A stretch of 64,000 bases of DNA from Gemmataceae bacterium (GCA_036783645.1 DAIPWT010000009.1:9118-73117), one strand, 5' to 3'. Numbered from the stretch's first letter, positions 2,846-24,009 are shown. The notes: generated by a model from the letters alone, not told the origin. Made by a program: numbers and translations.

Positions 2846-2908
2846 GTTTAGCCGCGACCCGAAGGGGAGCGCTCTTCGCCCGCGCTCCCCTTCGGGTCGC
2901 GGCTAAAC
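2846..2908. repeat. GC-rich REP-like palindrome, family GTTTAGCCGCGACCCGAAGGGGAGCGC (probable terminator between convergent genes)
   Basis: Near-perfect inverted repeat GTTTAGCCGCGACCCGAAGGGGAGCGC...GCGCTCCCCTTCGGGTCGCGGCTAAAC. The same element recurs at 15789-15851, with a half copy at 56201-56229. Confidence 0.8.
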
Positions 2909-4113
2909 AATTTTCTCCGCAGCACCCGCACACCGTCGAAGCAGCGTTCCATCAACCGGCGCGCCTTTTCACGCGGCCCACCGCGATGGGCGCGCAGCTG
3001 AATCAACGACCGCGAAGCCGACGCCATTTGCAGCTTATACGGAGCTTCATCGGCCAGAAAATCGAACTCGCGGCGCCCGGCCTCGATGGCAGCGCGAACC
3101 GCATACGCCAGGATCACGCCGCCCGGACGGACGCTATTGGGTACATTTACGCTCCGTCCCGTCTGATAAGTAATCGTTTTGTCGCCCCACGTCATGCCGT
3201 ACAGGGCCGCGACCGGCTCGCCGCGCACGGTCAGCTGGTGCAGTTCCAGCGCGCCGCGTTCCAGCAATGTCCGCAGGATCGCATCGTGAAACTGTAAAAA
3301 ATTCGGCGAGTGGAAGACGCCGGATTGCCCGTCTCCTTCCCAGCGCGCGTGATGCAAATCGATCAGAACGCGCGTCGCCTTCTCCAGCTCGGCCGCGTCG
3401 GTCACGCGCTCCAGGCGCGCCGCGCTGTCCGCCCACTCCTCGAAAGCGCGGAGGGATCGCGTCACCTGGCGGCGATGAGTGCATGACAGACTTTTGAGAT
3501 AGTCTTCCCATGTCTTAGGTAGAGAAATGTACGGGGCGCGGGCCGTTTCGGTCGTCTCGACGGTCAAGCCGGCTTCGCGGAATGCGGCCGTAAGCAGGGC
3601 GGGCATGGGGCCGTCGCCGTCCATCATCGGCAACACGGCTTCGTCCCATGCTCCTAACGTCCCGTCCGTCAGCGCGACGACCAACCGCCGCGCCACCGCT
3701 TCCTCGGCGCCGCGCTCCGCGATCACATTGAGATGATTGGAACAAACGCCGTGGCCTTCGCGCTCGCCCGACGCCAGGAACTCCAGGCGGCGAAACGGCA
3801 CGACGCCGCGATACCAGTGCCGGCGAAGCGACAGCGGCGCCAATCCGACGAGCCGGCCCGAGTCGCGGAACAGGGCGATGCGCAGCTGCCGGCCTTGTTG
3901 CGACCCGTAGACTCGCTGCCATGTCAGCAGCCATTCCGGCGACAGCGTCAGCTCGTTGCGCTCGCTCCGCTCCAGCAGTTCGGTCCACTCCGGCCGCAGC
4001 TGTTCGGCCTCGGCCGCTGTGGTTGCCAGCACGCAGGTGAACGCGTGGGACGGCGTCAATGGTCGTCCGCCGGCCGGTGCTTGCCGGCACGGAGGCGGCT
4101 CAAAGAGTTCCAT
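2848..4113 (-). CDS. GNAT-family acetyltransferase of the CelD/BioF2-like (FemAB-like) type
   Basis: About 420 aa. C-terminal RGEPVAALYGMTWGDKTITYQTGRS...GGVILAYAVRAAIEAGRREFDFL resembles the Acetyltransf_6 core. The 3' end runs into the REP hairpin; the true start may be an internal GTG. Confidence 0.65.
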   Translation of the reverse strand: MELFEPPPCRQAPAGGRPLTPSHAFTCVLATTAAEAEQLRPEWTELLERSERNELTLSPEWLLTWQRVYGSQQGRQLRIALFRDSGRLVGLAPLSLRRHWYRGVVPFRRLEFLASGEREGHGVCSNHLNVIAERGAEEAVARRLVVALTDGTLGAWDEAVLPMMDGDGPMPALLTAAFREAGLTVETTETARAPYISLPKTWEDYLKSLSCTHRRQVTRSLRAFEEWADSAARLERVTDAAELEKATRVLIDLHHARWEGDGQSGVFHSPNFLQFHDAILRTLLERGALELHQLTVRGEPVAALYGMTWGDKTITYQTGRSVNVPNSVRPGGVILAYAVRAAIEAGRREFDFLADEAPYKLQMASASRSLIQLRAHRGGPREKARRLMERCFDGVRVLRRKLFSRDPKGSAGEERSPSGRG

Positions 4114-4487: not shown

Positions 4488-4600
4488 TTAGGGGGGTGAA
4501 TCGCATCCGCTGCGAGAAGGCGCCGCTATGGAGTGCGGCGCGCTGGTTCCTACGCAAGTATAGGTTAGAAAAAAAGCAACAGGCGAGCCGCTGGATTTAT

Positions 4601-4698
4601 GCAAGCGTTGGCGAGCCGGGGGCGTAAGCCCCCGGATTCTGTTTCCGTTGCAGCAGACAGAATCCGGGGGCTTACGCCCCCGGCTCGCCAACGCTTGC
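4601..4698. repeat. 98-bp nested palindrome at the left edge of the phage-like cluster
   Basis: GCAAGCGTTGGCGAGCCGGGGGCGTAAGCCCCCGGATTCTGT ... ACAGAATCCGGGGGCTTACGCCCCCGGCTCGCCAACGCTTGC. The right arm encodes the last codons of the 4672-5157 gene. Confidence 0.85.
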
Positions 4699-5157
4699 CG
4701 GCCGTAGGCCGTTCAACACGCCAACCACCTCCGCGCGGGCGTCCGGATACCGCTCCAGCGCTCGCAGCAAGGTGCGGAGCAAATCCTGTACGCCGGGATC
4801 GAGCAAGGGCGACGTCGGCTTGTCAGCGCCGCCGCGCGGCTTGGCGAGCGCCGACCAACCGGGTTTGGCCGCCGTCTCTTTACCGGGGCCAGCCTTGAGC
4901 CAGTCCACCGGCTTGCCTTTCAGCGCGGCGACCTCCGCACCGAGCCGCGCCTGCGCCTCGGCCTGACGCACCGCCACGGCGAAGAGACGGTATTTCAGGA
5001 TCTGCCGTTTGCCATCGCCCTTGCGCATCCATTCCTCGAAGTCCTCGCGCGAGACGCCGGCGGCCTCGGCGGCGACGTGCGCGAAACCGCCGGCGCGGAC
5101 GTAGGCAAGGATGGTCGTTTCGACGGCGGGCGTCAGTAGAGGACGTTTCTGAGCCAT
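4672..5157 (-). CDS. small HTH protein resembling phage terminase small subunits
   Basis: N-terminus LLTPAVETTILAYVRAGGFAHVAAEAAGVSREDFEEWMRKG...YRLFAVAVRQAEAQA fits the TerS-like homeodomain pattern. Last gene of the phage-like operon. Confidence 0.5.
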   Translation of the reverse strand: MAQKRPLLTPAVETTILAYVRAGGFAHVAAEAAGVSREDFEEWMRKGDGKRQILKYRLFAVAVRQAEAQARLGAEVAALKGKPVDWLKAGPGKETAAKPGWSALAKPRGGADKPTSPLLDPGVQDLLRTLLRALERYPDARAEVVGVLNGLRPASVGEPGA

Positions 5158-5174
5158 AAGAAGAGGTCCATTTC

Positions 5175-5224
5175 ATAGGTCCTATAGGACTTATAGGTCC
5201 TATAGGACCTATAAGTCCTACAGG
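5175..5224. repeat. A/T-rich palindromic array of 9-bp units, copy 2
   Basis: ATAGGTCCTATAGGACTTATAGGTCCTATAGGACCTATAAGTCCTACAGG, in the intergenic gap between the ABC-GNAT gene and the HTH gene. Confidence 0.85.
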
Positions 5225-5228
5225 ATTG

Positions 5229-6356
5229 TCAGCCGCTCAACAAAGCGCAAGCCTGGTATCGAGGCAGAGCGGGGCCGACATACTCAAAGCCGGCCGTGAG
5301 CCGATTGGTCGCATGTTTGAGGCCGCGCCGTCCACGTTCGCCGCGCGAGACGAGGCTCGGCGACCGCCGCAGTCGCCAGAGCGATGAACGCAGACGAGCG
5401 CGGATCATGGCCGGGTGCGTGGTGGTGGACACGGCACGGCAGCCCAGGCCGCGCCACAATGACGCGACCAGGGCCGAGAGCGCATTACCCACGCCGACGC
5501 CTTGATAATCCGGCAAGCAAACCGTCCGGTGTTCGCGCCGCGTCGGCGGGCCGGCGCCAGGGAACGGCAGCCACGCACTGAAGGCGACCGGCCGTTCGTC
5601 CCACGATGCCAGGAAGCAGACGGCCGAGCGCGCCAGTTCGCCGCTCAGGTAGTGATGCGGAGCGAACAGCGGCCACGCCGATGTCTGGCAACGAACGATT
5701 TCGAGGCGGACGTGGGGCCGTCGCCGAAGCAACCTCCATTCAAACCGACCCTCGGCGGGTTGATAAACCCAATCCGGTTGCAGCCACGGAATCACGTCGT
5801 CATGGCAAGTCACGGCGACGAAGCGCAGGCCGTTGGCACGGACGGCCCGCGCCGCCGCGGCGCTGCCGATTTGCGCCACAGTGCGGTCCACGACGCTGGT
5901 GTATTCATCCAGGACAACGAGCGCCGGTTTAGCTGAGGAGAGCGCTTCGGCGAGGAGGCGGGCAAGCGTGACGCGAAATTGTTGGCCGGTGGACAGGACA
6001 TGGAACGGCCGCAGCCATGCCGGGGGCGACGAAAAGCCGACCGCCGATAGCAGACTCGTCACGTCTTTGATCGAAGTGCCATCAGGAAAGGCGTCGAGGA
6101 GGGCGCGATCATGCGGCCAGGAGAGGGCGGCGGAGTGCAAGGTCTCGCGCGGCCAGAACCAGCGGGCGAGCGTGGACTTGCCGCAGCCGGACGGCCCGGT
6201 GATGAGGCCGACGTTCCACGGCCGATCCTCAATCGGCAGGGTCGCGGCCCACTGAAGGCGCGACGTTTTCTCAGGCGCCAGGTCGAACAGCCCGCGCACT
6301 TGCTGGACGCGCGGCGATTCGACGACGAGCGACTCGACGGTGACGACGGCTTGCAT
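5229..6356 (-). CDS. soluble ABC-type ATPase fused to a C-terminal GNAT-like acetyltransferase domain
   Basis: Walker A GPSGCGKST, ABC signature LSTGQQ, Walker B LVVLDEYTSVVD, H-loop VTCHDD. C-terminal CLPDYQGVGVGNALSALV fits the GNAT motif A (QxxGxG). Start moved to ATG 6354-6356 because the longer ORF reads through the hairpin. Confidence 0.7.
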   Translation of the reverse strand: MQAVVTVESLVVESPRVQQVRGLFDLAPEKTSRLQWAATLPIEDRPWNVGLITGPSGCGKSTLARWFWPRETLHSAALSWPHDRALLDAFPDGTSIKDVTSLLSAVGFSSPPAWLRPFHVLSTGQQFRVTLARLLAEALSSAKPALVVLDEYTSVVDRTVAQIGSAAAARAVRANGLRFVAVTCHDDVIPWLQPDWVYQPAEGRFEWRLLRRRPHVRLEIVRCQTSAWPLFAPHHYLSGELARSAVCFLASWDERPVAFSAWLPFPGAGPPTRREHRTVCLPDYQGVGVGNALSALVASLWRGLGCRAVSTTTHPAMIRARLRSSLWRLRRSPSLVSRGERGRRGLKHATNRLTAGFEYVGPALPRYQACALLSG

Positions 6357-6376
6357 AGTGCAATCTCCAAAAGATT

Positions 6377-6473
6377 CACCACAAAGACACAAAGAACACA
6401 AAGGATGACAAATTGAATAAATACTTAATGCCTATCTTTTGTCTTCCTTTGTGTTCTTTGTGTCTTTGTGGTG
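6377..6473. repeat. hairpin with arms made of three CACAAAG units and an A/T-rich loop
   Basis: CACCACAAAGACACAAAGAACACAAAGG ... CCTTTGTGTTCTTTGTGTCTTTGTGGTG. Unit spacing is 8 then 9 nt. Lies between the ParB-like and ABC-GNAT genes. Confidence 0.85.
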
Positions 6474-6483
6474 AATCCGTTTT

Positions 6484-7053
6484 TCAGCTCAACAGCGCCC
6501 GGCACTTCAGCCCTTCCGTCTGGAAGCGTTGCAGCAAGGCGATTTGTTCCTCTTCATCGGCGCATTCAATCAGGACGAGGTATTGTTCCGCCGGGTCCGG
6601 CGCCGCCTTGCGCCCCGCTCCGGCCAGCGTCTTTTCGACCGCCGCGCCCGCCGACGCGATGGACCGCCACAGATTCACCAGCACGTCGGAATCCGCGTCG
6701 GTCACGCGGCGCAGCGCGTCGAGCTTTTGAGCGTCGTAGTCGGCAAGGGCGGCGAGCGGGTCGATGGACAGCAACAGCGCGCGGGCCTCGCCGTCGTCCA
6801 CGTCCAACACTTCCACGTCCACTTCCATATCGGGTCGCATCGACTGGCGCAGGTGGCCGTCGATCAGCTTGAGTCGGCCGTCGGGAAGCTCGTAGGCCAG
6901 CAGACTCCGGGCGAAGCCTACTTCCTCGTATAAGGCGGCCAGGGCGGCGCGCTGGGCCTCGGAGTGCAAGCGCGGGTTCAGCTCATGCGGCACGAGGTCG
7001 CCGGCGCGGACGCGGCGATGGCCCTTGATGCGGTTGCGCGGCGAAGCGGTCAT
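6484..7053 (-). CDS. ParB-like nuclease (ParB/Srx N-terminal) domain protein
   Basis: LVPHELNPRLHSEAQ...LKLIDGHLR resembles the ParB N-terminal box (the usual DGHHR appears here as DGHLR). About 190 aa. Confidence 0.65.
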   Translation of the reverse strand: MTASPRNRIKGHRRVRAGDLVPHELNPRLHSEAQRAALAALYEEVGFARSLLAYELPDGRLKLIDGHLRQSMRPDMEVDVEVLDVDDGEARALLLSIDPLAALADYDAQKLDALRRVTDADSDVLVNLWRSIASAGAAVEKTLAGAGRKAAPDPAEQYLVLIECADEEEQIALLQRFQTEGLKCRALLS

Positions 7054-7069
7054 GGTAGAGTCTCTTATA

Positions 7070-7161
7070 AGGGTCTGACCGCAAAGGGCGGGGAAACCCC
7101 GCTCCTACGGCGATTTTCTTGGGTAGGGGCGGGGTTTCCCCGCCCTTTGCGGTCAGACCCT
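7070..7161. repeat. GC-rich 92-bp palindrome inside the phage-like operon
   Basis: AGGGTCTGACCGCAAAGGGCGGGGAAACCCCGC ... GCGGGGTTTCCCCGCCCTTTGCGGTCAGACCCT. Confidence 0.85.
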
Positions 7162-7516
7162 AAACATCGTTACTCGGCCACGTCAGGTTGATGCGCTGTA
7201 GGTAGACGATTTTGTGATCCACCGCCGTGCCGCGGCCCACGCGGGCCACGGCCTGCACCTGAAACCTCGTCCCCGATTGGTTCGACACGTACACGGCGGA
7301 GCCGCCTGGCACACCGCTATAACCGTCGCGGACGTCCACCGTCGTCTCGACGCGCAGGATGTGCGTGTAGGTGAAAATGGGATTAATCGCAGGCTTGAGG
7401 TTGCGGAAATCCTCTTCCAGATAGCCCGTCGCGCCCGGCACGTCCGGCGGCGCCGGCGGCAGATTCTGCCCATGATAGATGTCACAAGTAATGTTGGCGG
7501 GCATCGGCAGGCTCAT
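7160..7516 (-). CDS. small phage head-completion (head-closure/adaptor-like) protein
   Basis: 118 aa, immediately after the connector-like gene (4-nt gap). Assignment rests on size, beta-rich composition and position only. Confidence 0.4.
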   Translation of the reverse strand: MSLPMPANITCDIYHGQNLPPAPPDVPGATGYLEEDFRNLKPAINPIFTYTHILRVETTVDVRDGYSGVPGGSAVYVSNQSGTRFQVQAVARVGRGTAVDHKIVYLQRINLTWPSNDV

Positions 7517-7519
7517 GGC

Positions 7520-8473
7520 TTACCCCTGATTCGTGGCGACAGTGTGACGACGGTACGGCGCCAACAGCGGCCGGATCACCGGCGGCGGTTGATGGTCGCC
7601 GGCGGCTTGCATCCACGTTTGAGCGGCCGCGCCAGACACCGCCTGATGAGACAAAGAAGGATCGCGCTGGGTTAGGTCGTAGTTCATCGCCACCCAGAGG
7701 GCGCACGCCTGTTGCACGGCTTCCGGCACGGTCGTATAGCCGGCCGTGTACTGCACACGGAAGTTGTGGATTCCCACTGGCCAGATCAGGTCTTCGGGAT
7801 GCAGCAATTCCGGATCGGAATAGGGGATGGCGCGGAGCAGCCAGCCGCGCGCGTCCCACTGATAGCCGGCCAGCTCGTAAGTGTGCAGCTTCAACTCGGC
7901 GTTCTGTCGCATGGCCGTGAGGGCGCCCTGCGATTGCACGCCGTCGCCGTAGCTGCTGGGCACATACAAGTCGGCGCTCGGCCATTGGCCGTAATCTCCC
8001 GTGACATCGCCGACGACTTGCGCGGTCCAACCGCGGCCGACGGCGGCGACCGCGCTGGCCAACGCGGTCAACGTCGGACACGCCGCCCACGTCAGGCTGG
8101 CCGTGGTGATCGTCTTCACGCCGGCCGCGACCTCGACCAGCTGAAGGCCGGTCGCCGTCACTTGGACGCGGCTCTGCTGGGTCGCCTGGCTGACGCTGTT
8201 ATTGACGACTTTGAGGACCGTCACAGGGCGGTAACGGACGCTATCCACCGACTGAACAGGGTATTCGCGCAGGATCAGCCGGGGATCACCCGTGCCGTTG
8301 TAAAGCTCGTCGCGTGCGATGCTGACGAAGCGGCGCCGGCAATACTTTTCGATGGCGTCGGAACAGGCCGTGACGAGCGTTTGTAGGATCGCGTTTGTCG
8401 TCGTATTGTCGGCGTAATACTGCATGGCCTGCACGGCGCGGCCGCTGGTGATGAGGTCTTTGGGGTTAGCCAC
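7520..8473 (-). CDS. phage gp6-like head-tail connector domain protein with a roughly 200-aa C-terminal extension
   Basis: N-terminus ...NAILQTLVTACSDAIEKYCRRRFVSIARDELYNGTGDPRLILREYPVQSVDSV matches the gp6-like pattern. Start overlaps the GT2 stop by 8 nt. Confidence 0.5.
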   Translation of the reverse strand: MANPKDLITSGRAVQAMQYYADNTTTNAILQTLVTACSDAIEKYCRRRFVSIARDELYNGTGDPRLILREYPVQSVDSVRYRPVTVLKVVNNSVSQATQQSRVQVTATGLQLVEVAAGVKTITTASLTWAACPTLTALASAVAAVGRGWTAQVVGDVTGDYGQWPSADLYVPSSYGDGVQSQGALTAMRQNAELKLHTYELAGYQWDARGWLLRAIPYSDPELLHPEDLIWPVGIHNFRVQYTAGYTTVPEAVQQACALWVAMNYDLTQRDPSLSHQAVSGAAAQTWMQAAGDHQPPPVIRPLLAPYRRHTVATNQG

Positions 8474-9374
8474 GGCCGGCCTCCTTTCGCCACGCCATAA
8501 TGCGGACTTTCGCCTCGCGCACGGCTTGGATGAGATTGGTTCGGCAATTCCGGTGCATCTCCCCGTCGGCGTCGTAGAGATTCAGCCCTGAAAGGGAGCG
8601 TATATGGTCGATATTTTCGTCCGTGTAGCGAGCGTAGTTTTGATCGTGGCCGATGAGATACGGGAAGACGCCGGCCCGGCGGATGCAGCGGTCGAACGGC
8701 TGTTCGGTGTCGGGATAGCCGACCTGTTGCGGCCGCGCCTCGCCGGACTCCCAGTAGCGCTCGAAGCTCCACGTCGCCCCGATGCGCCGCATTGTCGGCA
8801 TGTGGAGCATCGTGCAAGTGTGCGAGACGACGTTGCGCCAGCCGTTGGTATCCGGCCGTGGACTCATCTCGTAGCCGACGACGGGCTGGCCGGCGTCGCA
8901 CAGGCCGAGCAGCCATTCGACAAGGTCGCGCCGTCGCGGGAAGACGTCCGAATGCGAGCAGAGCAAGTACCGCGTGCGGCACAGGGCGAAGGCCAGGTCC
9001 ATCGCCGTGGTAACAGGCGCCGACGAGTGGGCATAGGCATGGGCGCGGACGTAATGGATTTCCACGTCGGGCCGACGGAGCGCCTCCAGAGTGCGGACGA
9101 CGGCCGGCGACGAACCCGTGTCAATGAGTAGGACGTAGGGCCGCACGGTTTGCAGGGCCAGCAGTTCCAGCAAGACGGGCAAGGTTTCCGGAGTTTCCAG
9201 ATGCGGTATTACCACGGTAACTTGATACTCCCACGGCTTACGGACGGCCGTACCTTCCCAGGGTCGTTGTCGGGCGCGGCAGGCAAACGGAGCGACGGCC
9301 GCTAGGGAGGATTCGTCGGCCTTGAGGATCGCCTCACGGGCGCGGGCCAAGGTGATGAGGTCGTTGCCAGGCAT
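8466..9374 (-). CDS. family-2 glycosyltransferase embedded in the head module
   Basis: VTVVIPHLETPETLPVLLELLALQT...LLIDTGSS...CSHSDVFP (GT-A fold, DxD-like SDV). Start set to ATG 9372-9374 (MPGNDL) because the longer ORF reads into the REP hairpin. Confidence 0.75.
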   Translation of the reverse strand: MPGNDLITLARAREAILKADESSLAAVAPFACRARQRPWEGTAVRKPWEYQVTVVIPHLETPETLPVLLELLALQTVRPYVLLIDTGSSPAVVRTLEALRRPDVEIHYVRAHAYAHSSAPVTTAMDLAFALCRTRYLLCSHSDVFPRRRDLVEWLLGLCDAGQPVVGYEMSPRPDTNGWRNVVSHTCTMLHMPTMRRIGATWSFERYWESGEARPQQVGYPDTEQPFDRCIRRAGVFPYLIGHDQNYARYTDENIDHIRSLSGLNLYDADGEMHRNCRTNLIQAVREAKVRIMAWRKEAGRG

Positions 9375-9391
9375 TATTTTCTCCACGGTTC

Positions 9392-9457
9392 GTACAAGCC
9401 CTGAGCGCAAGCGAGGGGTTTTCGTTTTCCCCCTCGCTTGCGCTCGGGGCTTGTAGC
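9392..9457. repeat. REP-like palindrome, family GTACAAGCC(Y)GAGCGCAAGCGAGGG
   Basis: GTACAAGCCCTGAGCGCAAGCGAGGGG...CCCCTCGCTTGCGCTCGGGGCTTGTAG. Related copies at 39241-39296 and 44936-44997. Confidence 0.8.
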
Positions 9458-9463
9458 GCTAGA

Positions 9464-9922
9464 TCAGGTGGTCACCTGCTGGCTGACCACCGAAACATCG
9501 TTGTTGACGCTGTTGGGTTTGTGAATGGCTTCGCCGGTCAATGGTACGCAGACCACCGGGATGGTGGGCGTCGTACCGCCGATGGTGAAGACCACGCTGG
9601 CCCGGACGTAGCGTTTGCCGGCCCCGAGTTGATCGGCGCGGACTTCGCTGGTGCCGATGCTGCTCGCGGCGGCGACGGTTAGCGCACTTACCGTACCGTT
9701 ATTGGTCCAGGTTGCGCCGTCGGGCGATTCCTGGACGGTCAACACGGCTGCGCACGTCGGGCTGGTGCCGCCGAAGACGCCGAGGTCGAGGACGAAGAGA
9801 CAGCGATGGACCAGCGCCAGGTCCACCTTGCCGGTGGTGAGCGTGGTGGTCGAGGTCAGTTGCTGGGCGTGGATCGGCGCGCCGCCGATGGCCAACGCTT
9901 GGGTCAGATGTTCGGTGTACAT
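9464..9922 (-). CDS. hypothetical phage structural protein (candidate capsid accessory/decoration protein by position)
   Basis: 152 aa, Thr/Gly/Val-rich beta-type composition, directly downstream of the capsid gene. No recognisable motif. Confidence 0.45.
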   Translation of the reverse strand: MYTEHLTQALAIGGAPIHAQQLTSTTTLTTGKVDLALVHRCLFVLDLGVFGGTSPTCAAVLTVQESPDGATWTNNGTVSALTVAAASSIGTSEVRADQLGAGKRYVRASVVFTIGGTTPTIPVVCVPLTGEAIHKPNSVNNDVSVVSQQVTT

Positions 9923-9950
9923 GGATGCTCCTTTATAAAGATAAGCGGAG

Positions 9951-10009
9951 TATTATAAGTCCTATAGGTCCTATAGGACCTATAAGTCCTATAAGACTAA
10001 TGAAACCCC
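9951..10009. repeat. A/T-rich palindromic array of 9-bp units, copy 3
   Basis: TATTATAAGTCCTATAGGTCCTATAGGACCTATAAGTCCTATAAGACTA, between the capsid gene stop and the next gene. Confidence 0.85.
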
Positions 10010-10023
10010 GCCCGCCAGGGTAA

Positions 10024-11340
10024 TCAGTTCAACGCCACAAACGGCGAAACCTGCGTCACGCCGTCCTGCAAAGTCACGGGCTTATCCAACCACGGCTGGC
10101 CGTCCACGCGCTCGACCACGCGCCACGTCATCTGGTTCTTGAGGAAGTTGACGTGTTCCGACGCTGCGATCTCGATCTGCATCCGGTCGCCCACGATGTA
10201 GAAACTCGGGTCGAGCAGCATCACGTCGCCCTTCGTGCCGAGGGCCGGCACCTTCTCCGTGGGAAACACCGGCCGGCCGAGCAGGCTCCAGTTCGGCGAC
10301 TTCGTCGCTCCCTGATCGATGCTGATGAAGATCGCCCGGTTGGCGCCGTCCTTGAGCTGCAACAGCTGCGGCACCACGCTGGGGCTACAAGTCCAAATCG
10401 CTTTGCCCCAAGAGATAGGCAGCAGCTTGGCCCACATGCCGGCCACGTCGGCGTACTGCACCTGGTTGGCCGTCTGCCGGGTCTGGCTGACCGTGGCCGC
10501 GGCGCCGAGCATTCCTTGCGGTTTGCCGGCCCCGTTGCCCTGCAAAAAGGCGTACTCCTCGAACCACGCCAGCGACTTGGCGAACAGCGTCATCAGGAAC
10601 TTTTCCAGGCCGATCACGCTGTCCTGCAACAGCACATTGCTGGACACCGAATATCCGGAAAGCTCCCACGCCTTCAGGTCGAGCTGCTTGAACTGCGGCT
10701 CCGTCTCGGTGCGCGTCTGCGACTCGGCGGTCCAGTACATCTGCACGCCGCCGAAGAACGGGCTGACGCCGGCCGCCTGCACCGTACTCGCGTCGAGGTA
10801 GGGGATCTGCATGGTGGAACTCGCCATCGGCACGACGAAGGCGCGCTGACGGACGAAGGTTTCTTCCGCCATGATCGACATCAATTGTTGGTAGAAGTCC
10901 GGCGGCACGGTATAGCCGCCGGTGACGCCGGACGCCTCGGCCAGGGCGGCCTTGCCGGCGTACTCGACGAAACGGCTGCCGTAGTGCTTTTCGAGGTAGT
11001 TGCGGTCGCCGCGGGCCACGGCCAAGGCCCAGTCGCCGAAGGTTTTGCCATGCGGATCGCCGTCGCCGCCAGAGCCGAACAGAACCGGCGCGGCGTTTTT
11101 GCGCGACAGCGAGCGGGCGTCGGCGAAGACTTTCAGCGATTGGTTGACGGCCGCGTCGATGCTCTGGGATTGGCGGGCGAGGGCGGCGTCGAGAGCGCGG
11201 GTGACGGCGGGGCCGATGAGATCGTCGTCCACGGCGACGGCGGTTTGCTGTTGGATGAGGTGCTGGGCGTCGGTCTCGGAAACGTCGATGCGTTCACCGG
11301 CGGCGCGGCCGAGGAACGACTTTTTCAGTTCGACAAACAT
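10024..11340 (-). CDS. HK97-fold phage major capsid protein with a roughly 110-aa helical N-terminal (delta-domain-like) extension
   Basis: GGYTVPPDFYQQLMSIMAEETFVRQRAFVVPMASSTMQIPYLD and downstream blocks match the Phage_capsid (HK97 gp5-like) pattern. 438 aa. Confidence 0.88.
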   Translation of the reverse strand: MFVELKKSFLGRAAGERIDVSETDAQHLIQQQTAVAVDDDLIGPAVTRALDAALARQSQSIDAAVNQSLKVFADARSLSRKNAAPVLFGSGGDGDPHGKTFGDWALAVARGDRNYLEKHYGSRFVEYAGKAALAEASGVTGGYTVPPDFYQQLMSIMAEETFVRQRAFVVPMASSTMQIPYLDASTVQAAGVSPFFGGVQMYWTAESQTRTETEPQFKQLDLKAWELSGYSVSSNVLLQDSVIGLEKFLMTLFAKSLAWFEEYAFLQGNGAGKPQGMLGAAATVSQTRQTANQVQYADVAGMWAKLLPISWGKAIWTCSPSVVPQLLQLKDGANRAIFISIDQGATKSPNWSLLGRPVFPTEKVPALGTKGDVMLLDPSFYIVGDRMQIEIAASEHVNFLKNQMTWRVVERVDGQPWLDKPVTLQDGVTQVSPFVALN

Positions 11341-11597
11341 GATGATACCTCACGGTGGGTCCACGGATCGAAGGCGCGAACACGCTGGGGTCCGACCATC
11401 TCCGGGCCGCGGCGCTTGACGGCTTGGCGTCCGTCTCCGATGGCGATCCCTGATGGATTGAACGGGAAGAATGTAACATTTGTACACCTACCTTCCATAG
11501 CCTAATTTGGATGAATATGAGTGCCAATGAGGGTATCTCATCTTTTTGACAGGGAATTTGCGGATTTGAGGGGAACCGAGCGTGGGCAAGACCCACC

Positions 11598-11659
11598 AAT
11601 AGGACTTATAGGACCAATAGGACTTATAGGTCCTATTGGTCCTATAAGTCCTATTGGTC
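11598..11659. repeat. A/T-rich palindromic array of 9-bp units, copy 4
   Basis: AATAGGACTTATAGGACCAATAGGACTTATAGGTCCTATTGGTCCTATAAGTCCTATTGGTC, upstream of the capsid gene and downstream of the thioredoxin-like gene. Confidence 0.85.
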
Positions 11660-12532: not shown

Positions 12533-12622
12533 GGATCGATCCTTCTTCCTTGATGGATCTACGAATGACATGGCGATGACAGGGCGGACCCTTTTAGGCG
12601 AAGGGCGTCGCGGTGTCAAGGC

Positions 12623-12677
12623 GTGGGGCAGGTTTCTAACCTGCCAATTCGGAAGGCAGGTTAGAAACCTGCCCCAC
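12623..12677. repeat. palindromic hairpin (GTGGGGCAGGTTTCTAACCTGCC arms)
   Basis: Perfect inverted repeat with a 9-nt loop, at the 3' end of the small membrane protein gene. Confidence 0.8.
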
Positions 12678-12975
12678 GGCGCGTAAAGTCATTCGACCCC
12701 GGCGCGGGCGGTTCATCTTCCGACTCCTCGGCGCGCTGACGCAGCTCATCCTCTTCGCGGTCGCCGGCCGTTTGTTGCAGCATGGATCGGCCCCATAGGA
12801 GATAGTGAATTGCCCCGAAGAGGAAGATGGCCGCGGCGACCCCGATCACGTAGACGGCCCAGCCGCCCGTCGCCACTACCAGCAGCAGCGCGAAAAAGCC
12901 GGCGACCATCGCCGCCATCATTAGCGACAAACAAGTTCCCCGTTGTCGCCCTTCCGGGTTTTCGCTCGGTTCCAT
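12661..12975 (-). CDS. small membrane protein (two TM helices, acidic tail)
   Basis: From ATG 12973-12975: LSLMMAAMVAGFFALLLVVATGGWAVYVIGVAAAIFLFGAIHYLLW, then a Glu/Asp-rich tail. Confidence 0.4.
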   Translation of the reverse strand: MEPSENPEGRQRGTCLSLMMAAMVAGFFALLLVVATGGWAVYVIGVAAAIFLFGAIHYLLWGRSMLQQTAGDREEDELRQRAEESEDEPPAPGSNDFTRRGAGF

Positions 12976-13013
12976 GATTTGTCCTCCCGCGCTCCCCTCC
13001 TTATACCGCCATA

Positions 13014-13400
13014 TTACCAGTCTCCAATTAGGCAGTGCTTGCCGCCCGAGAGCGGGAAATACCAGATGCAGGTGACCTTCCCCCGTTTCGAGCCGACCCT
13101 GACGCGACAATCGAAGTCCTCGCACTTTGAATCATCACCCAACGCTCCGGACGCTATACATCGCGCACCCCGCAACCGCTCCCGGACTTTTTTCATGTCG
13201 TCGCCGATCCGGACGCAATCGGTCAGCGCGACGATCTTTTCGTGATCAGTGTTGTTGTTTAGTATGATCGCATCAATCCGTGCGCACCAATCAACGACAA
13301 TGGCCCCATCTAGCTCGCCGCTCGACTCGTTGGGCGAAGCGCGGAGAAGCAGGGGGAAAGCGAGGAACACGACGACGACGGTAAAGCCAACATTGGTCAT
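13014..13400 (-). CDS. small secreted Cys-containing hypothetical protein
   Basis: Signal-like MTNVGFTVVVVFLAFPLLLRA from ATG 13398-13400. Locally A/T-richer sequence. Confidence 0.4.
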   Translation of the reverse strand: MTNVGFTVVVVFLAFPLLLRASPNESSGELDGAIVVDWCARIDAIILNNNTDHEKIVALTDCVRIGDDMKKVRERLRGARCIASGALGDDSKCEDFDCRVRVGSKRGKVTCIWYFPLSGGKHCLIGDW

Positions 13401-14122: not shown

Positions 14123-14294
14123 CCAAAGGACACGCCATTCGGAAGTTTATAGGCAACCGTCCAGCGCGGTTTATAAGCGAAGCACTCCTATATAGATACC
14201 CGCCCCAGCCGCTTGACGCCCGCATTGGCCGGTGAGACAATTCCCCATGTTGGACCATTGTTCTTGTCTCGCCCTCTCCAGGAGATCCCACGCC

Positions 14295-15782
14295 GTGACC
14301 ACAGCGACCCTAAAAAAGCCCCAGACCGTCAAGCCGCCGCAGGTCAAGGACCAACCCTTGTTCATCGGCGGCAAATGGCTCGACAGCGTTTCCGGCAAAA
14401 CCTTCGCCACCGTCAACCCCTCCACCGGCAAAACCATCTGCCAAGTCGCCGAGGGCGATAAGGCCGACGTTGATCTCGCCGTCAAGGCCGCCCGCAAGGC
14501 GTTCGAGGAAGGCTCCTGGCCCAAGACCAGCGCCGCCGAGCGCGGCCGACTGCTCTACAAGCTGGCCGACCTTGTCGAACGACACGGCGAGGAGTTAGCC
14601 GCTCTGGAATCTCTCGATAACGGCAAGCCCTATCGCGATTCGCTCAACGCCGACCTGGCCCTGACCGTCAAGGCGTATCGATACTATGCCGGCTGGGCCG
14701 ACAAGAATCACGGCAAGACCATCCCCGTCGAAGGGCCGTACTTCTGCTATACGCGCCACGAACCCGTCGGCGTCATCGGCCAGATTATTCCGTGGAATTT
14801 CCCGCTGTTGATGATGGCGTGGAAGTGGGCGCCGGCTCTTGCTTGCGGCAATACGGTCGTCCTCAAGCCGGCCGAGCAGACGCCGTTGACGGCGCTGCGC
14901 GTGGCGGCTCTGGCCCAGGAAGCCGGCTTTCCCGACGGCGTGATAAACGTCGTGCCCGGCTACGGCCCCACCGCCGGCGCCGCCCTCACGTCACATATGG
15001 ACGTGGACAAGATCGCCTTCACCGGCGAAGGCAGCACCGGCCAGATCATCATGGAAGCGGCCGCGCGCAGCAATCTCAAGCGCGTCAGCCTGGAGCTGGG
15101 CGGCAAAAGCCCCAACATCGTCTTCGCCGACGCCGACATCGACGCGGCCGTCGAAGGCGCGTACTTCGGCCTCTTCTTCAACCAGGGCCAGTGCTGCTGC
15201 GCTGGAAGCCGGCTCTTCGTCGAGGAGAAGATCCACGACCAGTTCATCGAAAAGGTGCTGAAAAAGGCCAAATCGCAGAAGATCGGCGACCCATTCGACC
15301 CGGAGACGACGCAGGGGCCGCAGGTGTCGCAAGAGCAATGCGATCGCATCATGGGTTACATCGACGCGGGCAAAAAGGAGGGCGCGAAGCTGATGACCGG
15401 CGGCAAGCGCGTCGCCGGCCCCGGCTATTTCATCGAGCCGACGGTGTTCACGGACGTAAAAGACGAAATGAAGATCGCCAAAGAAGAAATCTTCGGGCCG
15501 GTGATGAACGTGCTGAAGTTTAAGGACGTGGACGAGGTGGTGAAGCGCGGCAACCAGACGTTTTACGGCTTGGCGGCGGCGGTCTGGACGCGCGACATCG
15601 GCAAGGCGCACCGGCTGGCCAACGGCCTTCGCGCGGGCACCGTGTGGGTGAACTGTTACGACGTATTCGACGCGGCCGCCCCGTTCGGCGGCTTCAAGAT
15701 GAGCGGCATCGGCCGCGAACTCGGCGAATACGCGCTGTCGTTGTACAGCGAGGTGAAGACAGTGTACGTGAATCTGGGGTAA
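14295..15782 (+). CDS. NAD(P)-dependent aldehyde dehydrogenase
   Basis: [28 protein letters not shown] and catalytic-Cys block GQCCCAGSR. Start placed at GTG 14295, 9 nt after AGGAG; an in-frame ATG at 14232 is the alternative. Confidence 0.9.
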
Positions 15783-19958: not shown

Positions 19959-21800
19959 TCATTTCCCCGGCGGCGCCCATACGGCGTCAAAGCCGCGGCC
20001 GTCTTCCACCAGGGCGGTGCTGGCGCGTGACAACGTCAGCAACAACGGTCCGTCGCCGCGATGGTCCAACAGCAACATGCCGGCCCGATGCGCCGCCAGG
20101 GCGAAGTCGCCGGCCTCCAGCGCTTCCAACGCGGCCTCCGACTCGGCGAAAAACTGCCGACGCCGTTCCACGCCGGCCGCCTCCACTTCATACAGGTCCA
20201 CCGGCTCCGCGATGTTGACGACCCGCGCTTTCACCACGCGCCGCGAGGTGAAGCCATCGCCGAGCCGTTCGCGCGTGCCCCGCGTCACCAATACCGGACA
20301 TTTCAGATACTGTGTCAAACCCTGCACCCGGCTGCCGAGGTTGACCGTGTTGCCCATCGCCCCATATTTGAACTTGTACTTCGAGCCAGTGTTGCCGACC
20401 TGAGCCGGGCCGGTGCTGACGCCGACGCCGACCGCGGTCGCTCCGCCGAGAACTTCTTGCCACCGCGTGTTGAGGGCCGGCAGCGCGGCGAGCATGGCCA
20501 GGGCCGCGCGCACGGCCCGCTCGGCCTGATCCGGCTGGTCCTGCGGCGCCCCCCACATGGCCAGCACCTCGTCGCCGACGTAATCGACGAGTACGCCGCC
20601 TTCGTCGAGTACGCACCTAGACAACTCGTTCATTACGTCGTTCATCCAGCGCAGGCTGCCGGCCGGGCCTAGCTTTTCGCTGACCCGGCTGAAGCCGCGC
20701 ACGTCGCAGAACAGAAGCGTCACCCCGGCGTCGCGGCCCTCCAGCAGAGCCGGCTCACGGACCAATCGACGCGCCAGGTCGGCGCCGAAAAACTGTTCCA
20801 GGCGGACGTGGGCTTCCAACGCCGACTTCTCCTTGGCCTGCCGAGCCAGTCCCGCCGCCACGCCGCAGGCCAGCAGATCGACGAGCGTCGCTTCCAGCTG
20901 ACCGCCGACGTTCAGGAGCGAGATCGGCGCCCGACGACGTTCGCCGTAGAGGGCGCCGACGACGTTGCCGTCCGCATCGAGGAGGGGCGCGGCCACGACC
21001 GTCTGCAGCGGCGCCAAACTCGGCGTGTCGGCCTCACCGGACGGACGAGCCGATTGCCAAAAAGTCTTTTTCTTCTGCCTTACCTCCGCGAGAACGCGGC
21101 GACTCGGCTGCCACGGCCTGCCGAGCGTCGGCGCCTCGCCGTAAGCGGCGGCGGCGACCCACTGTTCGCCGTCGAGCAATAGCACACGGCCCAATTCGAG
21201 GCCGACGATCTGCACCAGCGCCTCGGCGGCTTTGTCGAGGAAGTCGGCCGCGCCTACGGTGGCCTGAAGGACGCCCATGGTGGTCTGAAGCCAGCCGACC
21301 ATCTCGTTCAGTTGGGCGCCGCTGAGGCCCGGCAGCGACCGTAGGCGAACGGAAAGGTCGGCGATCCGGCCGGGGCCGACGGTCTGCTCCTCAAGGCTGT
21401 GCATACCGGCTTGGTCGTCCGAGTCGGCGGCGCCGACCGTTACCGTCCGGCCGGGCAGGGAAAAGGAGAACGGCGCGGCCAGTTCGACGTTGGCGCCGGG
21501 AGCGAGGACGCCGCCGGGGGCGCCGCCGCAAGGGAGCGGCGCCTTGCTGCGATTGGTGAGACGAACGCGGCCGGAGGAAAGCGGCTCAAGGAGGGCGTGA
21601 CGGCGGGAGATGTTATCGCGGTCGTCCTGCCGGGCCACGACCAAGCGAGCGGGCGCGGAATCGACGCCGGGCAAGACGGCGTAAGGCGCCGGCTCGCCGG
21701 CCTGCTGACGGCCGAGTTCCAGTGGACCGGTCAGACGGCCGTCGAACGCGGCGCGGTCGCCTTCGAGGATACGGATTGTCAGGAAATCGATCTCGCGCAT
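19959..21800 (-). CDS. FHA-GAF-class III adenylate/guanylate cyclase
   Basis: N-terminal FHA (LELGRQQ...ISRRHALLEP...VRLTNRS), central GAF-like region, C-terminal VTLLFCDVRGFS...GDEVLAMWGAP cyclase core. Confidence 0.9.
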   Translation of the reverse strand: MREIDFLTIRILEGDRAAFDGRLTGPLELGRQQAGEPAPYAVLPGVDSAPARLVVARQDDRDNISRRHALLEPLSSGRVRLTNRSKAPLPCGGAPGGVLAPGANVELAAPFSFSLPGRTVTVGAADSDDQAGMHSLEEQTVGPGRIADLSVRLRSLPGLSGAQLNEMVGWLQTTMGVLQATVGAADFLDKAAEALVQIVGLELGRVLLLDGEQWVAAAAYGEAPTLGRPWQPSRRVLAEVRQKKKTFWQSARPSGEADTPSLAPLQTVVAAPLLDADGNVVGALYGERRRAPISLLNVGGQLEATLVDLLACGVAAGLARQAKEKSALEAHVRLEQFFGADLARRLVREPALLEGRDAGVTLLFCDVRGFSRVSEKLGPAGSLRWMNDVMNELSRCVLDEGGVLVDYVGDEVLAMWGAPQDQPDQAERAVRAALAMLAALPALNTRWQEVLGGATAVGVGVSTGPAQVGNTGSKYKFKYGAMGNTVNLGSRVQGLTQYLKCPVLVTRGTRERLGDGFTSRRVVKARVVNIAEPVDLYEVEAAGVERRRQFFAESEAALEALEAGDFALAAHRAGMLLLDHRGDGPLLLTLSRASTALVEDGRGFDAVWAPPGK

Positions 21801-23379: not shown

Positions 23380-23757
23380 GGACGGTTTTTCTCGATACGG
23401 TCGGCCTGATCGCGCTTTGGAACCGCTCCGACCCCTAGGTATCTACACAAGATAGACGGCCGCGATTTAGCCCCGGAGGGGCGGCGGTTAATAGCCAGGC
23501 GTGTAAACGCCTGGAAGGAGGCGGCGTCCCCTGATGAATCCAGCCCCGGAGGGGCGGCGGTAAGGGTCCGGCTCGGGACCGTCGCCCCTCCGGGGCTAAA
23601 TAAAGCAACGCCAGGCGCCCGCATCCAGGCGTTTACACGCCTGGCTATTAACCGCCGCCCCTCCGGGGCTAATACAACGCGCCGCGAGATTGTACTGACC
23701 GAAGTTTTTACCAACGACCGTCATTTCGCGGCCGCCGGGTTCACGCCGCTGTTTTAA
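23376..23757 (+). pseudogene. PIN-domain (VapC-like) toxin remnant split by a palindromic insertion
   Basis: N-terminal MRTVFLDTVGLIALWNRSDP then a stop. C-terminal EIVLTEVFTNDRHFAAAGFTPLF* at 23689-23757. The central roughly 85 codons are missing. Confidence 0.6.
23467..23672. mobile_element. MITE-like 206-bp element with perfect 48-bp terminal inverted repeats
   Basis: Left arm 23467-23514 (TTAGCCCCGGAGGGGCGGCGGTTAATAGCCAGGCGTGTAAACGCCTGG) is the exact reverse complement of right arm 23625-23672. Contains nested internal hairpins and no ORF. Confidence 0.6.
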
Positions 23758-24009
23758 TCACCAGCGGCGCGAGGGTTGCCTCGTTGACCCCAAGGTCTAC
23801 GCGGGACTCTATTTTATCTAGCGTCGGCGTTAGCGGGCACGCTTTGTTAGCGACTCTCGTCGGCGGGCCATCGCGTCAGTGCTTGGAGGAAATCCACGGC
23901 GGCTGACTGCCAGCGGCCGAGGCGGAATTCGGCCCTGCAACGGCGGCATATAGCGGGGCGTCGGCCGGGACTGATTCGGCTTTTCTTTACTGGCCCGGCA
24001 TCCCTTCCA

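Follow-up and report, generated by a model that had tools for sequence, protein, structure and literature searches.

The eight genes between positions 4672 and 11340 of the analysed DNA (a stretch of 64,000 nucleotides from a Gemmataceae bacterium, hereafter the window) constitute a partial copy, running from the major capsid protein (MCP) gene to a small-terminase-like (TerS) gene, of a conserved tail-less head-and-packaging module that is widespread in Gemmataceae. The most likely reading, to which we give about an even chance, is that this part remains functional as half of a split module.

Gene content of the locus and of the module family

ORF calling placed the eight genes throughout on the minus strand, in the same orientation and at the coordinates claimed in a preliminary description of the locus, and profile and structure searches upheld most of its gene assignments. 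The MCP (10024..11340, minus strand, 438 aa) matches both PF05065 (Phage_capsid; 2.2e-46, 158.9 bits with a cut-off of 24.2, aa 141-422) and TIGR01554 (1.7e-66, 225 bits, cut-off 27.5), the whole capsid domain of the HK97-fold family scoring above the curated cut-offs. It is 51-90% identical to its relatives in 33 genome loci, and its capsid fold begins near aa 141, behind an N-terminal extension that we infer to be a delta/scaffolding domain. Directly 3' of the MCP gene, in 45 loci, lies the gene for a 152-aa protein (9464..9922, minus strand; phrog_5707 9.7e-8, a family also matched by 26 of its 29 homologues), which is probably a capsid cement or decoration protein; its top PDB profile match is the BPP-1 cementing protein 3j4u_H at a non-significant E of 0.4, and a single-sequence AF2 model was unusable (pLDDT 42). 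This gene is mosaic, with 85-90% identity to L036, L238 and L239 (L numbers denote related loci) and 40% to L007. The assignment as a GT2 glycosyltransferase fared poorly: the GT-A-like protein (8466..9410, minus strand; 302 aa from a later start according to gene callers on identical public contigs) matches Pfam Glycos_transf_2 at E 0.0038, below the family cut-off, and its GT2 identity is therefore weakly indicated. The gene is accessory and restricted to part of the family (L007, L013, L018, L024, L033, L036 and L238), being missing from most other loci.

The earlier gp6-like connector is a head-tail adaptor of the gp6/gp15 type with a long insertion (7520..8473, minus strand; phrog_442 3.5e-25, PF24163 weakly, and TIGR02215 over aa 25-82 at 3e-4, below cut-off), and the head-completion-like protein is a head-closure (stopper) protein of 118 aa (7160..7516, minus strand). 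The AF2 model of the latter, built from a 40-sequence alignment, is a six-stranded beta barrel (pLDDT 84.3, pTM 0.79) that Foldseek matched to the phage 7-7-1 neck, SPP1 gp16 (7z4w), the T1 stopper 9l0e and the Chi and Milano necks, with probability 0.96-1.0 and TM ~0.5 but weak E-values (6e-3 to 0.1). The remaining genes encode: a ParB/Srx-like protein (6484..7053, minus strand; phrog_620 1.6e-7); an ABC-type ATPase::GNAT fusion (5229..6401, minus strand; ABC_tran 4.4e-7, Acetyltransf_1 2.3e-5, phrog_11143 3.5e-98), which is 36-46% identical to proteins of phages of Gordonia, Arthrobacter, Burkholderia and other hosts, and whose likely start, taken from gene callers on identical public contigs, gives 375 aa and an end at 6356; and a TerS-like HTH protein (4672..5157, minus strand; phrog_4102 1.4e-9), whose gene is the final conserved module gene in 18 loci.

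Family-specific queries for the large terminase (TerL), portal and protease gave no tblastn match across the whole 64 kb, and, for the 49 remaining ORFs of the window, the 25 most frequent of the 29 families matched in a PHROG scan included none for portal, terminase, capsid, protease, tails, lysis or integrase, in line with the absences first described. As had likewise been claimed, the genes on either side are of cellular type, one thioredoxin/DsbD-like and the other Acetyltransf_6, and the composition is host-like, with a module GC of 0.62-0.65 and GC3 of 0.75-0.87 that are comparable to the remaining window. The same locus is carried by six independent public contigs.

A single tail-less layout recurs in over 200 related loci of Gemmataceae MAGs and of metagenomes, and tblastn synteny found it to be common to 33 genome, 80 metagenome and 71 IMG/VR loci. 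The full order is TerL, portal, S78-like protease, leader, MCP, cement, accessory, adaptor, stopper, accessory, ParB-like, ABC-ATPase/GNAT and TerS; the accessory genes are optional, and compact forms measure 8.4-9.5 kb. The genes missing here were identified in relatives (TerL by phrog_7579 at 5e-54, the portal by Pfam at 1.5e-43, the S78-like protease with weak support), where they lie directly upstream of the MCP gene. The layout holds over portal identities of 49-100%, and the order is phage-like in L115 alone, where ParB and TerS precede TerL. Cement and stopper genes have been swapped between lineages, and some MAGs contain two divergent copies (L032/L034 and L025/L026). As a separate observation, three inner module genes match the podophage fibre-adaptor family Gp77.

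Within the 10 kb flanks examined around the family loci, clustering of 1262 ORFs revealed no conserved flanking family, and no conserved tail or lysis family occurs in 113 related loci. A Pfam scan of 150 upstream flank ORFs (24 ORFs downstream of TerS were left out) recovered mostly varied cellular genes, with no integrase, AlpA/MerR or primase-replicase among the 25 most frequent Pfam families listed; a PrimPol/AAA_25 helicase or HNH gene was found in just two or three loci (PrimPol/AAA_25: 2). Two candidate identities were rejected: a stump of an ordinary tailed prophage, because the relatives are without tail, lysis and integrase genes and the flanks are unrelated host genes, and an encapsulin nanocompartment, because the operon also contains adaptor, stopper and TerS genes and the relatives carry portal and TerL. 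The original choice between a prophage stump and a domesticated module was thereby reframed; both sides of it are still plausible, with the ordinary tailed-prophage stump removed.

The break upstream of the capsid gene and the palindromic boundaries

The MCP gene is preceded by a conserved structured leader (11370..11464, minus strand; covariance model R1) of three stacked helices and a ACNCCAAG loop, whose 3' end lies ~30 nt ahead of the start codon. R1 scores 74.9 bits (E 2e-17) at this leader, its sole match in the window, and it matched 76 of the 100 sequences searched, each locus having a single match immediately 5' of the MCP gene and in the orientation of that gene; no Rfam family matches the leader. 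In the alignment 89.8% of cells are paired and double changes occur in 13 of 17 pairs, values that were reached by none of 500 shuffles. The adjoining stretch (11465..11529, minus strand) is conserved in a clade-specific manner and contains TGTACAnnTGTTACA; it may possibly be a promoter or operator region, and no sigma-70 consensus site was found in it. DNA homology upstream of the MCP extends to 11529 with L007 and to 11485 with L024 and L036.

Overall, DNA homology reaches 11459-11529 and ends ~36 bp before the stop codon of the L008 protease gene would be reached. The break thus falls between the protease stop and the MCP leader, TerL-portal-protease no longer adjoins the MCP, and the remaining window genes and the leader are intact. 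Since relatives have TerL-portal-protease upstream of the MCP, the window copy is a lineage-specific truncation or split. The preliminary description had named, as the outcome that would count against it, a lineage-specific truncation of complete prophages under neutral drift; only the first half of this was found, because the relatives, without tail, lysis and integrase genes, are not complete prophages, and drift does not agree with a dN/dS of 0.09-0.25 (~0.16 on the MCP branch). Module splitting is recurrent across the family: in L138 and L232 unrelated genes come after TerL-portal-protease, insertions separate protease from MCP in two loci of the window's clade (L036 and L235), L134 has its distal part inverted, and L089, L091 and L112 have a lactate-permease gene after the portal. 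In L007 (dS 0.47) the 5' half is also missing.

A palindrome occupies each real intergenic gap of the module, and the palindromes earlier claimed for every gap are present at seven sites between 4601 and 11659. Three of these are arrays of the palindromic 9-mer TAGGWCCTA, a pattern with 37 matches at four sites of the window against 0.07 expected: 11595..11659, at the junction of the module with the thioredoxin-like gene, where the array has a different length in the near-identical contig L002; 9949..10005, between the MCP and 152-aa genes; and 5175..5225. The others are hairpins: with 26-nt arms at 9393..9455 (family copies at 39238-39301 and 44933-45000), 39-nt arms at 7070..7161, 40-nt arms at 6373..6477, within which L002 departs from the window, and perfect 42-nt arms at 4601..4698, the 3' module boundary. 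Homology to the sister loci stops exactly at 4698, the edge of this last hairpin, and a copy of its family sits in a different gap in L239. Just 3' of the module, a stem with a T run (4568..4593, minus strand) resembles a terminator by consensus match. A hairpin with 24-nt arms (12622..12678), which ARAGORN miscalled as a tRNA-Arg, marks the second breakpoint of an inversion between the window and L238 and L239. Seven of the 15 long hairpins of the window fall within the 7-kb module stretch (binomial P ~6e-4, by hand arithmetic that is not normalised for intergenic space). Across the family, palindromes number 0.25 per kb in modules versus 0.19 per kb outside, and a heavy palindrome load is not a general trait of the module family.

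Inheritance, selection and competing explanations

The window shares its orf154/aldehyde-dehydrogenase host flank with two sister loci, L238 and L239. Module genes have a dS of ~0.5, compared with 0.40 in the aldehyde-dehydrogenase gene and 0.47-0.72 in orf154, and the dN/dS of module genes is 0.09-0.25 against the sister lineages (0.09-0.23 against L239), overlapping the values of complete modules for most genes. The equal synonymous divergence of module and flank and the low dN/dS therefore argue for vertical inheritance: the locus diverged together with neighbouring host genes, under purifying selection. This was seen within the window's clade, flanks being different in more distant loci. 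The long residence first read from the palindromes is supported more directly by the equal dS, the palindromes not being family-wide. On the window's own MCP branch (dS ~0.2) omega is ~0.16 (0.16-0.25 by outgroup), the same value as on the L007 branch and one that does not exceed those between complete-module lineages, e.g. L008 and L009. The MCP dN/dS of the window's clade (0.15-0.25) is about twice that of the complete-module clade (0.05-0.11).

Close relatives show damage. The MCP is cut in sister lineages (111 codons left in L239, 40 in L238, 219 in L033), and in sister copies the cut capsid gene adjoins serine-recombinase genes; L238 has a shorter, diverged ParB (omega 0.58) and a split ATPase, and L036 has a cut ATPase and no TerS. 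Part of this damage comes from nanopore MAGs, in which frameshifts can be sequencing errors. The sister MCP cuts imply that capsid function is dispensable or being lost in the window's clade, and they lend some weight to a tentative but quite plausible alternative, in which the locus is an inactive remnant that has only begun to decay: TerL, portal and protease would have been lost, and the remaining genes would make nothing and would not yet have accumulated disabling mutations. The progressive damage in L033, L239, L238 and L036 and the lack of portal, TerL and protease in the window and sister contigs fit such a remnant, and with a baseline omega of 0.08 and a branch value of 0.16, approximately the last 9% of the branch (dS ~0.02, by hand arithmetic) could be neutral. 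However, all eight ORFs and the leader are intact, the branch omega is not raised over the L007 and L008/L009 values, the relatives' damage may partly be sequencing error and, if the 5'-half loss of L007 is shared (dS 0.47), constraint outlasted the loss by long.

That the genes were exapted to serve without a complete capsid, for instance with TerS, ParB and ATPase-GNAT blocking the packaging of infecting phages or with the ATPase/GNAT modifying DNA, seems unlikely. The genes from the 152-aa gene through TerS are intact, with omega 0.09-0.25, in lineages with a cut MCP, the ATPase/GNAT also occurs apart from terminase genes in a Mu-like Burkholderia phage, and it partially matches (2.4e-11, ~50 residues) the PADLOC candidate-defence ATPase model mad3. 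This match nevertheless covers the generic ABC signature region only, the other genes have no PADLOC match, the sister MCP cuts may be recent, and the window also keeps MCP, cement, adaptor and stopper, which have no known role outside a capsid. A recent foreign insertion (an ordinary tailed-prophage fragment) or an assembly artefact, suggested by the many related stretches listed as viral contigs in IMG/VR, is contradicted, and highly improbable, given the host-like composition, the six independent contigs, the synonymous divergence equal to that of the host flank, the constancy of the tail-less layout over the whole range of portal identities, and the fact that the IMG/VR contigs begin at TerL and have no terminal repeats, like trimmed provirus calls.

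Known systems and the proposed function

Capsid-forming PICIs (cf-PICIs) are set apart by their own TerS, TerL, portal, protease, HK97-type capsid, adaptor and connector, with no tail or holin (PMC10085698), and their tail-less DNA-filled capsids are released and take on phage tails afterwards (10.1101/2025.02.11.637232). The Gemmataceae family has the same components, again with no tail or holin, adaptor and stopper (the former by profile, the latter by fold) being present in the window, and by analogy a similar capsid-then-tail mechanism may apply. There are also differences: of the genes for TerS, TerL, portal, protease and capsid, all five of which occur in the wider family, the window carries just the first and the last; its copy amounts to four of the 11 core components of cf-PICIs; the half made up of integrase, AlpA/MerR-type regulator and primase-replicase did not turn up in the module scans; TerS is at the far module end, behind the ParB-like and ABC/GNAT genes; the hosts are Planctomycetota; and the window module diverges with its host flank and is not a visibly mobile island.

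Gene transfer agents (GTAs) of the RcGTA type, ICTV 'viriforms', are chromosomal, host-like and vertically inherited under purifying selection, and their parts can be at separate loci. The present locus resembles them in its chromosomal phage-derived structural genes, its host-like composition, the integrase and replication genes not found, and, at least in the window's clade, its vertical inheritance under purifying selection (omega 0.09-0.25). To our knowledge all described GTAs encode tails, however, whereas tails are absent from every Gemmataceae locus examined, some MAGs have two divergent copies, and the swapping of cement and stopper genes among lineages is more reminiscent of a mobile element.

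The ParB-ATPase-TerS trio has a counterpart in Gordonia phages, in which a ParB-like nuclease gene adjoins an ABC-like ATPase gene at the terminase end of the genome. The order in Yago84 is gp1 ParB-like nuclease, gp2 ABC-like ATPase (37-40% identical to the module ATPase), gp3 small hypothetical protein (at the place where TerS is expected), TerL, portal, protease and MCP; the same trio stands ahead of the head genes there, but these are complete tailed phages of ~60 kb, and in Gemmataceae it follows the head genes, the two orders being circular permutations of each other. Streptomyces satellites of the Mulch and Flayer systems similarly have encapsidation machinery and miss key replication genes (PMC10690885). 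They differ in being free satellite viruses that bring tails of their own or are adapted in their tails, and one is non-integrating.

We slightly favour the split module, with its partners elsewhere, over the early remnant. Three weak negatives concern its partners: a metagenome scan for the portal gave no contig from samples holding the window's MCP, protein searches gave no portal from this organism or window-clade contigs among the matches listed, and candidate portals were traced to other samples. The failure to find a portal for this organism, the sister MCP cuts and the raised MCP dN/dS of the clade count against the split module. If it does operate, the window copy would be unable to do so alone, and TerL, portal and protease would be encoded elsewhere in the genome. 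The module would then make DNA-filled HK97-type heads that adaptor and stopper, as assigned here, would close and leave ready for tail docking, and these heads would need tails that a helper phage supplies, as for cf-PICIs, or that a separate host locus encodes, as with GTAs.

The tail-less module family and its copy in the window

The locus in the window is a partial member of a previously undescribed family of tail-less head modules, and this family is a new variant of the theme of capsid-forming islands and gene transfer agents (GTAs). A scan of species-representative genomes for the major capsid protein (MCP) recovered 33 Planctomycetota loci, mostly from Gemmatales, with MCPs that are 51-90% identical. 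Tblastn mapping and ORF clustering revealed a single conserved gene order across the relatives: TerL, portal and protease come first, followed by MCP and the 152-aa gene; one variable slot separates these from adaptor and stopper, and a second one lies between the stopper and the ParB-like, ATPase/GNAT and TerS genes. The first three, which the window lacks, were assigned in the relatives as TerL (phrog_7579, 5e-54), portal (Pfam, 1.5e-43) and, with weak support, an S78-like prohead protease. The same layout was found in 80 more metagenome loci and 71 IMG/VR loci by a portal-anchored scan, in which compact modules measured 8.4-9.5 kb. Clustering of 1262 ORFs from 113 loci yielded no further conserved family, and no recurring integrase, tail or lysis family appeared in the related loci among the matches listed. 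Since the layout is shared and no such family recurs, the tail-less organization is, as judged from gene content, a feature that a large family has kept stably, rather than the result of many independent decays. More than 960 distinct portal clusters of the module type were present in a public protein collection (E < 1e-50), so that their function, whichever it may be, is common among Gemmataceae of soil and fresh water.

The genes in the upstream flanks are cellular and of varied kinds; three loci have an HNH gene ahead of TerL, and two have a PrimPol/AAA_25 helicase gene. The variable slots hold recurrent accessory genes (e.g. F10 in locus L011, 10157-10927; F11 in L018, 12230-12877; F14 in L009, 10183-10677). 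One accessory is a 256-aa protein without family match, whose N-terminus is apparently hydrophobic and then proline-rich; another is weakly CYTH-like, and yet another carries an ASCH domain. Modules also contain inserted host-type genes (Uma2, PIN, YhcG, WD40, DUF1559, lactate permease), and three inner module genes match the podophage fibre-adaptor family Gp77. A free small virus or plasmid was rejected as a source, as the IMG/VR relatives have no terminal repeats and begin exactly at TerL, like trimmed provirus calls; integration beside tRNA genes was likewise dismissed, a tRNA being nearby in only 3 of 42 loci. Two loci, L013 and L016, have a tRNA-Ala(GGC) in common (20374-20447 and 20528-20602, respectively), some 250-750 bp downstream of the last small module gene, which could reflect a shared integration site or shared synteny.

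In the window, the eight minus-strand ORFs lie where the preliminary description had placed them, and most of its assignments were borne out by database matches: the HK97-type MCP (10024-11340; PF05065 2.2e-46 and TIGR01554 1.7e-66 in a profile search), the gp6-like connector, which matches head-tail adaptors (7520-8473; phrog_442, 3.5e-25), the ParB-like protein (6484-7053; phrog_620, 1.6e-7), the ABC-ATPase/GNAT fusion (5229-6401; ABC_tran 4e-7, Acetyltransf_1 2e-5, phrog_11143 3.5e-98) and the TerS-like protein (4672-5157; phrog_4102, 1.4e-9). The 118-aa protein that had been called head-completion-like (7160-7516) has a predicted fold that matches phage stoppers and necks: its AF2 model, built from a 40-sequence alignment (pLDDT 84, pTM 0.79), is a six-stranded barrel that resembles SPP1 gp16, the T1 stopper and the 7-7-1, Chi and Milano necks with Foldseek probabilities of 0.96-1.0 and TM ~0.5, at weak E-values. 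The proposed GT2 glycosyltransferase (8466-9410) held up less well, its Pfam match (E 0.0038) falling under the Pfam cut-off; a likeness of this protein to the adaptor was discarded, the two having co-clustered via fused ORFs without significant similarity. The position of the 152-aa protein (9464-9922) directly after the MCP and a non-significant match to the BPP-1 cement profile suggest a decoration protein; its single-sequence AF2 model was unusable (pLDDT 42).

Among the matches listed, the rest of the window contains no portal, terminase, protease, tail, lysis or integrase gene, both flanks are cellular and the base composition of the module fits the host, all as described before. While the observation itself is confirmed, its interpretation as a prophage stump or a domesticated capsid module is supported in part. 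A known defence system was considered and rejected, the sole PADLOC match being partial and confined to the ABC signature, and a scan for sigma-70 promoters found none. Just downstream of TerS lies an Acetyltransf_6 gene (2848-4113) whose product is 53% identical (E 1e-130) to that of a gene inserted between protease and MCP in L136, L137, L140 and L154 (e.g. L154 1837-3027), where it is encoded on the strand opposite to the module; the gene may be a recurrent neighbour, or the match may be coincidental, the paralogue family being a common one.

A further region of the window, at ~24000-37000, has a low GC content (0.50-0.58). It encodes a HaeIII-like C5 DNA methyltransferase (24010-25344), a Ser/Thr kinase (26149-27054), a RecA-like/AAA_25 helicase-like protein (28771-30024), a SNF2-type helicase of 1089 aa (30161-33430) and a 1143-aa protein with an N6-methyltransferase domain (33469-36900). 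An integrase was sought in the two ORFs between the C5 methyltransferase and helicase-like genes, but the first is the kinase gene and the second (27490-28449) had no significant match. The region may be a restriction/defence island or another mobile element. With 53% identity (E 2e-83), the AAA_25-like protein matches a PrimPol-helicase (L106 5940-8096) over the C-terminal half of the latter, and the gene of this PrimPol-helicase adjoins, directly upstream, the HNH-TerL genes of a related module.

The leader of the capsid gene and the intergenic palindromes

The ~95 nt that precede the MCP start codon are conserved between the relatives, unlike the rest of the intergenic region. This leader (11370-11464, minus strand) folds into three stacked helices with a nearly invariant ACNCCAAG loop. 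Its consensus reads CCGUC-A-GGG, a variable helix, GGAG and a 4-5 bp helix capped by the loop, followed by CAG, the return strand of the variable helix and CCYGG-AG-ACGG. A covariance model (R1, 36 sequences) was searched against both strands of 100 sources (1.45 Mb). In 76 of them it gave exactly one match per locus, and each match shares the strand of the MCP gene and immediately precedes it: one lies in the window, the others at the corresponding sites of 75 related loci (L007 9882-9976 and L173 3951-4046, for example). Across 70 distinct sequences, 89.8% of the cells are paired, versus 76.5% in shuffled alignments and 31-51% when the partners are slid; compensatory changes occur in 13 of the 17 pairs and none of 500 shuffles reached the observed values. 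Fitting this alignment to the model biases it towards the structure; the MAFFT alignment, however, already had the same compensatory pairs. Strand specificity and compensatory pairing together point to an RNA. No match to it was found in Rfam, in which the palindromes alone gave sub-threshold, miRNA-like matches. Possible roles are translational control, mRNA processing or stabilisation, and antitermination. As a candidate for a new cis-regulatory RNA of a capsid gene, the leader is well supported and has a clear genetic context.

The seven palindromes reported in the module gaps are real and comprise four long hairpins of differing sequence and three arrays of the 9-mer TAGGWCCTA, a pattern with 37 matches versus 0.07 expected. 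Seven of the 15 long hairpins of the window fall within the 7-kb module stretch. A family-wide enrichment was rejected, as the density over 30 related loci is 0.25 per kb in modules versus 0.19 per kb outside, with 0 to 9 long hairpins per module depending on the genome; the enrichment is specific to some genomes. The same hairpin families occupy different gaps in different relatives. Compared with L002, a contig (GCA_003508275.1) that is otherwise 99.98% identical, the palindromes at 6373-6477, 11595-11659 and 12622-12678 differ by ~100-170 bp in length, and inside the first of these L002 switches to unrelated sequence carrying a WD40 gene; repeats that turned over and recombined very recently may account for this, or else chimeric assembly at the repeats. 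The palindromes are mobile host repeats that colonise the gaps of this operon just as they colonise other intergenic DNA. They had been taken as a sign of long residence, with which they are consistent, but they are weaker evidence for it than a shared flank. The single tRNA call in the window, an ARAGORN tRNA-Arg(tct) at 12607-12682, overlaps a perfect palindrome with 24-nt arms and is therefore almost certainly a false positive. The longest inverted repeat of the window lies at 23467-23672 (95-nt arms, 84% complementary, 16-nt spacer).

Inheritance, splitting and selection

DNA homology to the relatives runs from inside TerS (4698-4725) to 11459-11529, i.e. 120-190 bp upstream of the MCP start codon and ~36 bp short of the position where the protease gene of L008 ends; beyond it lie a TAGGWCCTA array and a thioredoxin-like gene. 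A search with the stopper uncovered two sister lineages, L238 and L239, with module proteins mostly 80-93% identical to those of the window. All three lineages, which are roughly equidistant, share the host genes orf154 (12661-13125) and aldehyde dehydrogenase (14232-15782). The dS between window and sisters is ~0.5 for the module genes, 0.40 for aldehyde dehydrogenase and 0.47-0.72 for orf154, with dN/dS (omega) values of 0.09-0.25, 0.10 and 0.20-0.34, respectively. The shared flank and similar dS are direct evidence that the module stayed in its chromosomal neighbourhood and diverged with it. The segment from the thioredoxin-like gene to TerS is inverted with respect to the orf154/aldehyde dehydrogenase flank between window and sisters, and each of the two breakpoints in the window falls at a long hairpin (4601-4698 and 12622-12678).

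Modules have been split repeatedly. The MCP gene is cut at different codons in the two sisters (L238 6561-7400; L239 3160-4461), with 111 codons left in L239 and 40 in L238, and each cut adjoins a serine-recombinase gene, with a DUF3854 gene also present upstream in L238; the recombinases are only 40% identical and the cuts are thus independent events, which may be mobile-element insertions rather than deletions. L033 retains the C-terminal half of the MCP only, and the closest MCP relative, L007 (90%), has no 5' genes within 10 kb. In L036 and L235 TerL, portal and protease are present and genes are inserted between protease and MCP, while in L138 and L232 these three genes are followed by unrelated ones, i.e. 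they are reciprocal half-modules. The cement and stopper genes are mosaic, the 152-aa protein of the window being 85-90% identical to its counterparts in L036, L238 and L239 and 40% to that in L007, which implies recombination between module lineages.

All omega values were calculated by NG86, which underestimates dS in GC3-rich genes, and are therefore upper estimates. Three-taxon splits gave omega ~0.16 (0.16-0.25 by outgroup) at dS ~0.2 for the window's own MCP branch and a similar 0.09-0.15 for that of L007. Pairs of complete modules at similar dS showed 0.05-0.11 for MCP, 0.05-0.29 for cement, 0.06-0.39 for adaptor, 0.06-0.43 for ParB, 0.10-0.18 for ATPase/GNAT and 0.09-0.36 for TerS. The non-MCP genes of the window fall inside these ranges; its MCP lies about twofold above the complete-module pairs, yet not above L008 versus L009, which are complete or near-complete modules. 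By our own arithmetic this allows at most the last tenth or so of the window branch to have been neutral.

We give an even chance to the locus being one part of a split module with its partner genes elsewhere, a reading in line with the observed constraint, with the leader being intact and with L138 and L232 as reciprocal half-modules. No portal, TerL or protease of the organism itself was recovered from the samples or MAG holding the window MCP, by a metagenome portal-alignment scan, protein searches and cluster and contig look-ups; this is weak evidence against partners elsewhere. An early remnant that recently lost its 5' genes also fits the data, especially with the cut capsid genes in the sisters, and has an appreciable, below-even probability.

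Proposed function and relation to known systems

In a complete module, TerS would recognise DNA, accompanied by the ParB-like and ABC/GNAT proteins, by analogy with Gordonia phages, in which the terminase end reads ParB-like, ABC-like, small protein, TerL, portal, protease and MCP. TerL would then fill a portal-bearing HK97-type prohead matured by the S78-like protease, and adaptor and stopper would close the filled head, which might serve as a docking site for a tail from outside the module. Among working systems, the closest model is the capsid-forming PICI (cf-PICI), which releases tail-less filled capsids that later pick up phage tails (PMC10085698; 10.1101/2025.02.11.637232). The cf-PICIs differ in having an integrase, a regulator and a primase-replicase, which were not found with the Gemmataceae module and the lack of which sets it apart from them; the window copy moreover has no TerL, portal or protease. 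The module resembles a GTA in its vertical inheritance, its host-like composition and the absence of integrase and replication genes from the loci examined, but it differs from one in having no tails, in the two divergent copies present in some MAGs and in the exchange of cement and stopper genes between module lineages. A literature search for a described planctomycete GTA, satellite or capsid-leader RNA returned nothing relevant.

Taken jointly, and quite tentatively since we hold this combination to be rather unlikely, Gemmataceae may possess a long-domesticated, vertically inherited, tail-less capsid and packaging system (a new GTA-like 'viriform' class or a satellite that lost its integrase), the parts of which can be scattered over the chromosome and the capsid gene of which is under a dedicated, undescribed structured RNA, with the window holding half of a working split system. 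To our knowledge, very few phages of Planctomycetota have been characterised. If active, the modules would give this phylum its first described capsid-based DNA-transfer or satellite system, and would exemplify a head-only system with which no integrase or replication module was found. The recurrent splitting of modules with intact genes is a natural experiment on whether machines of phage origin can function when encoded at scattered loci.
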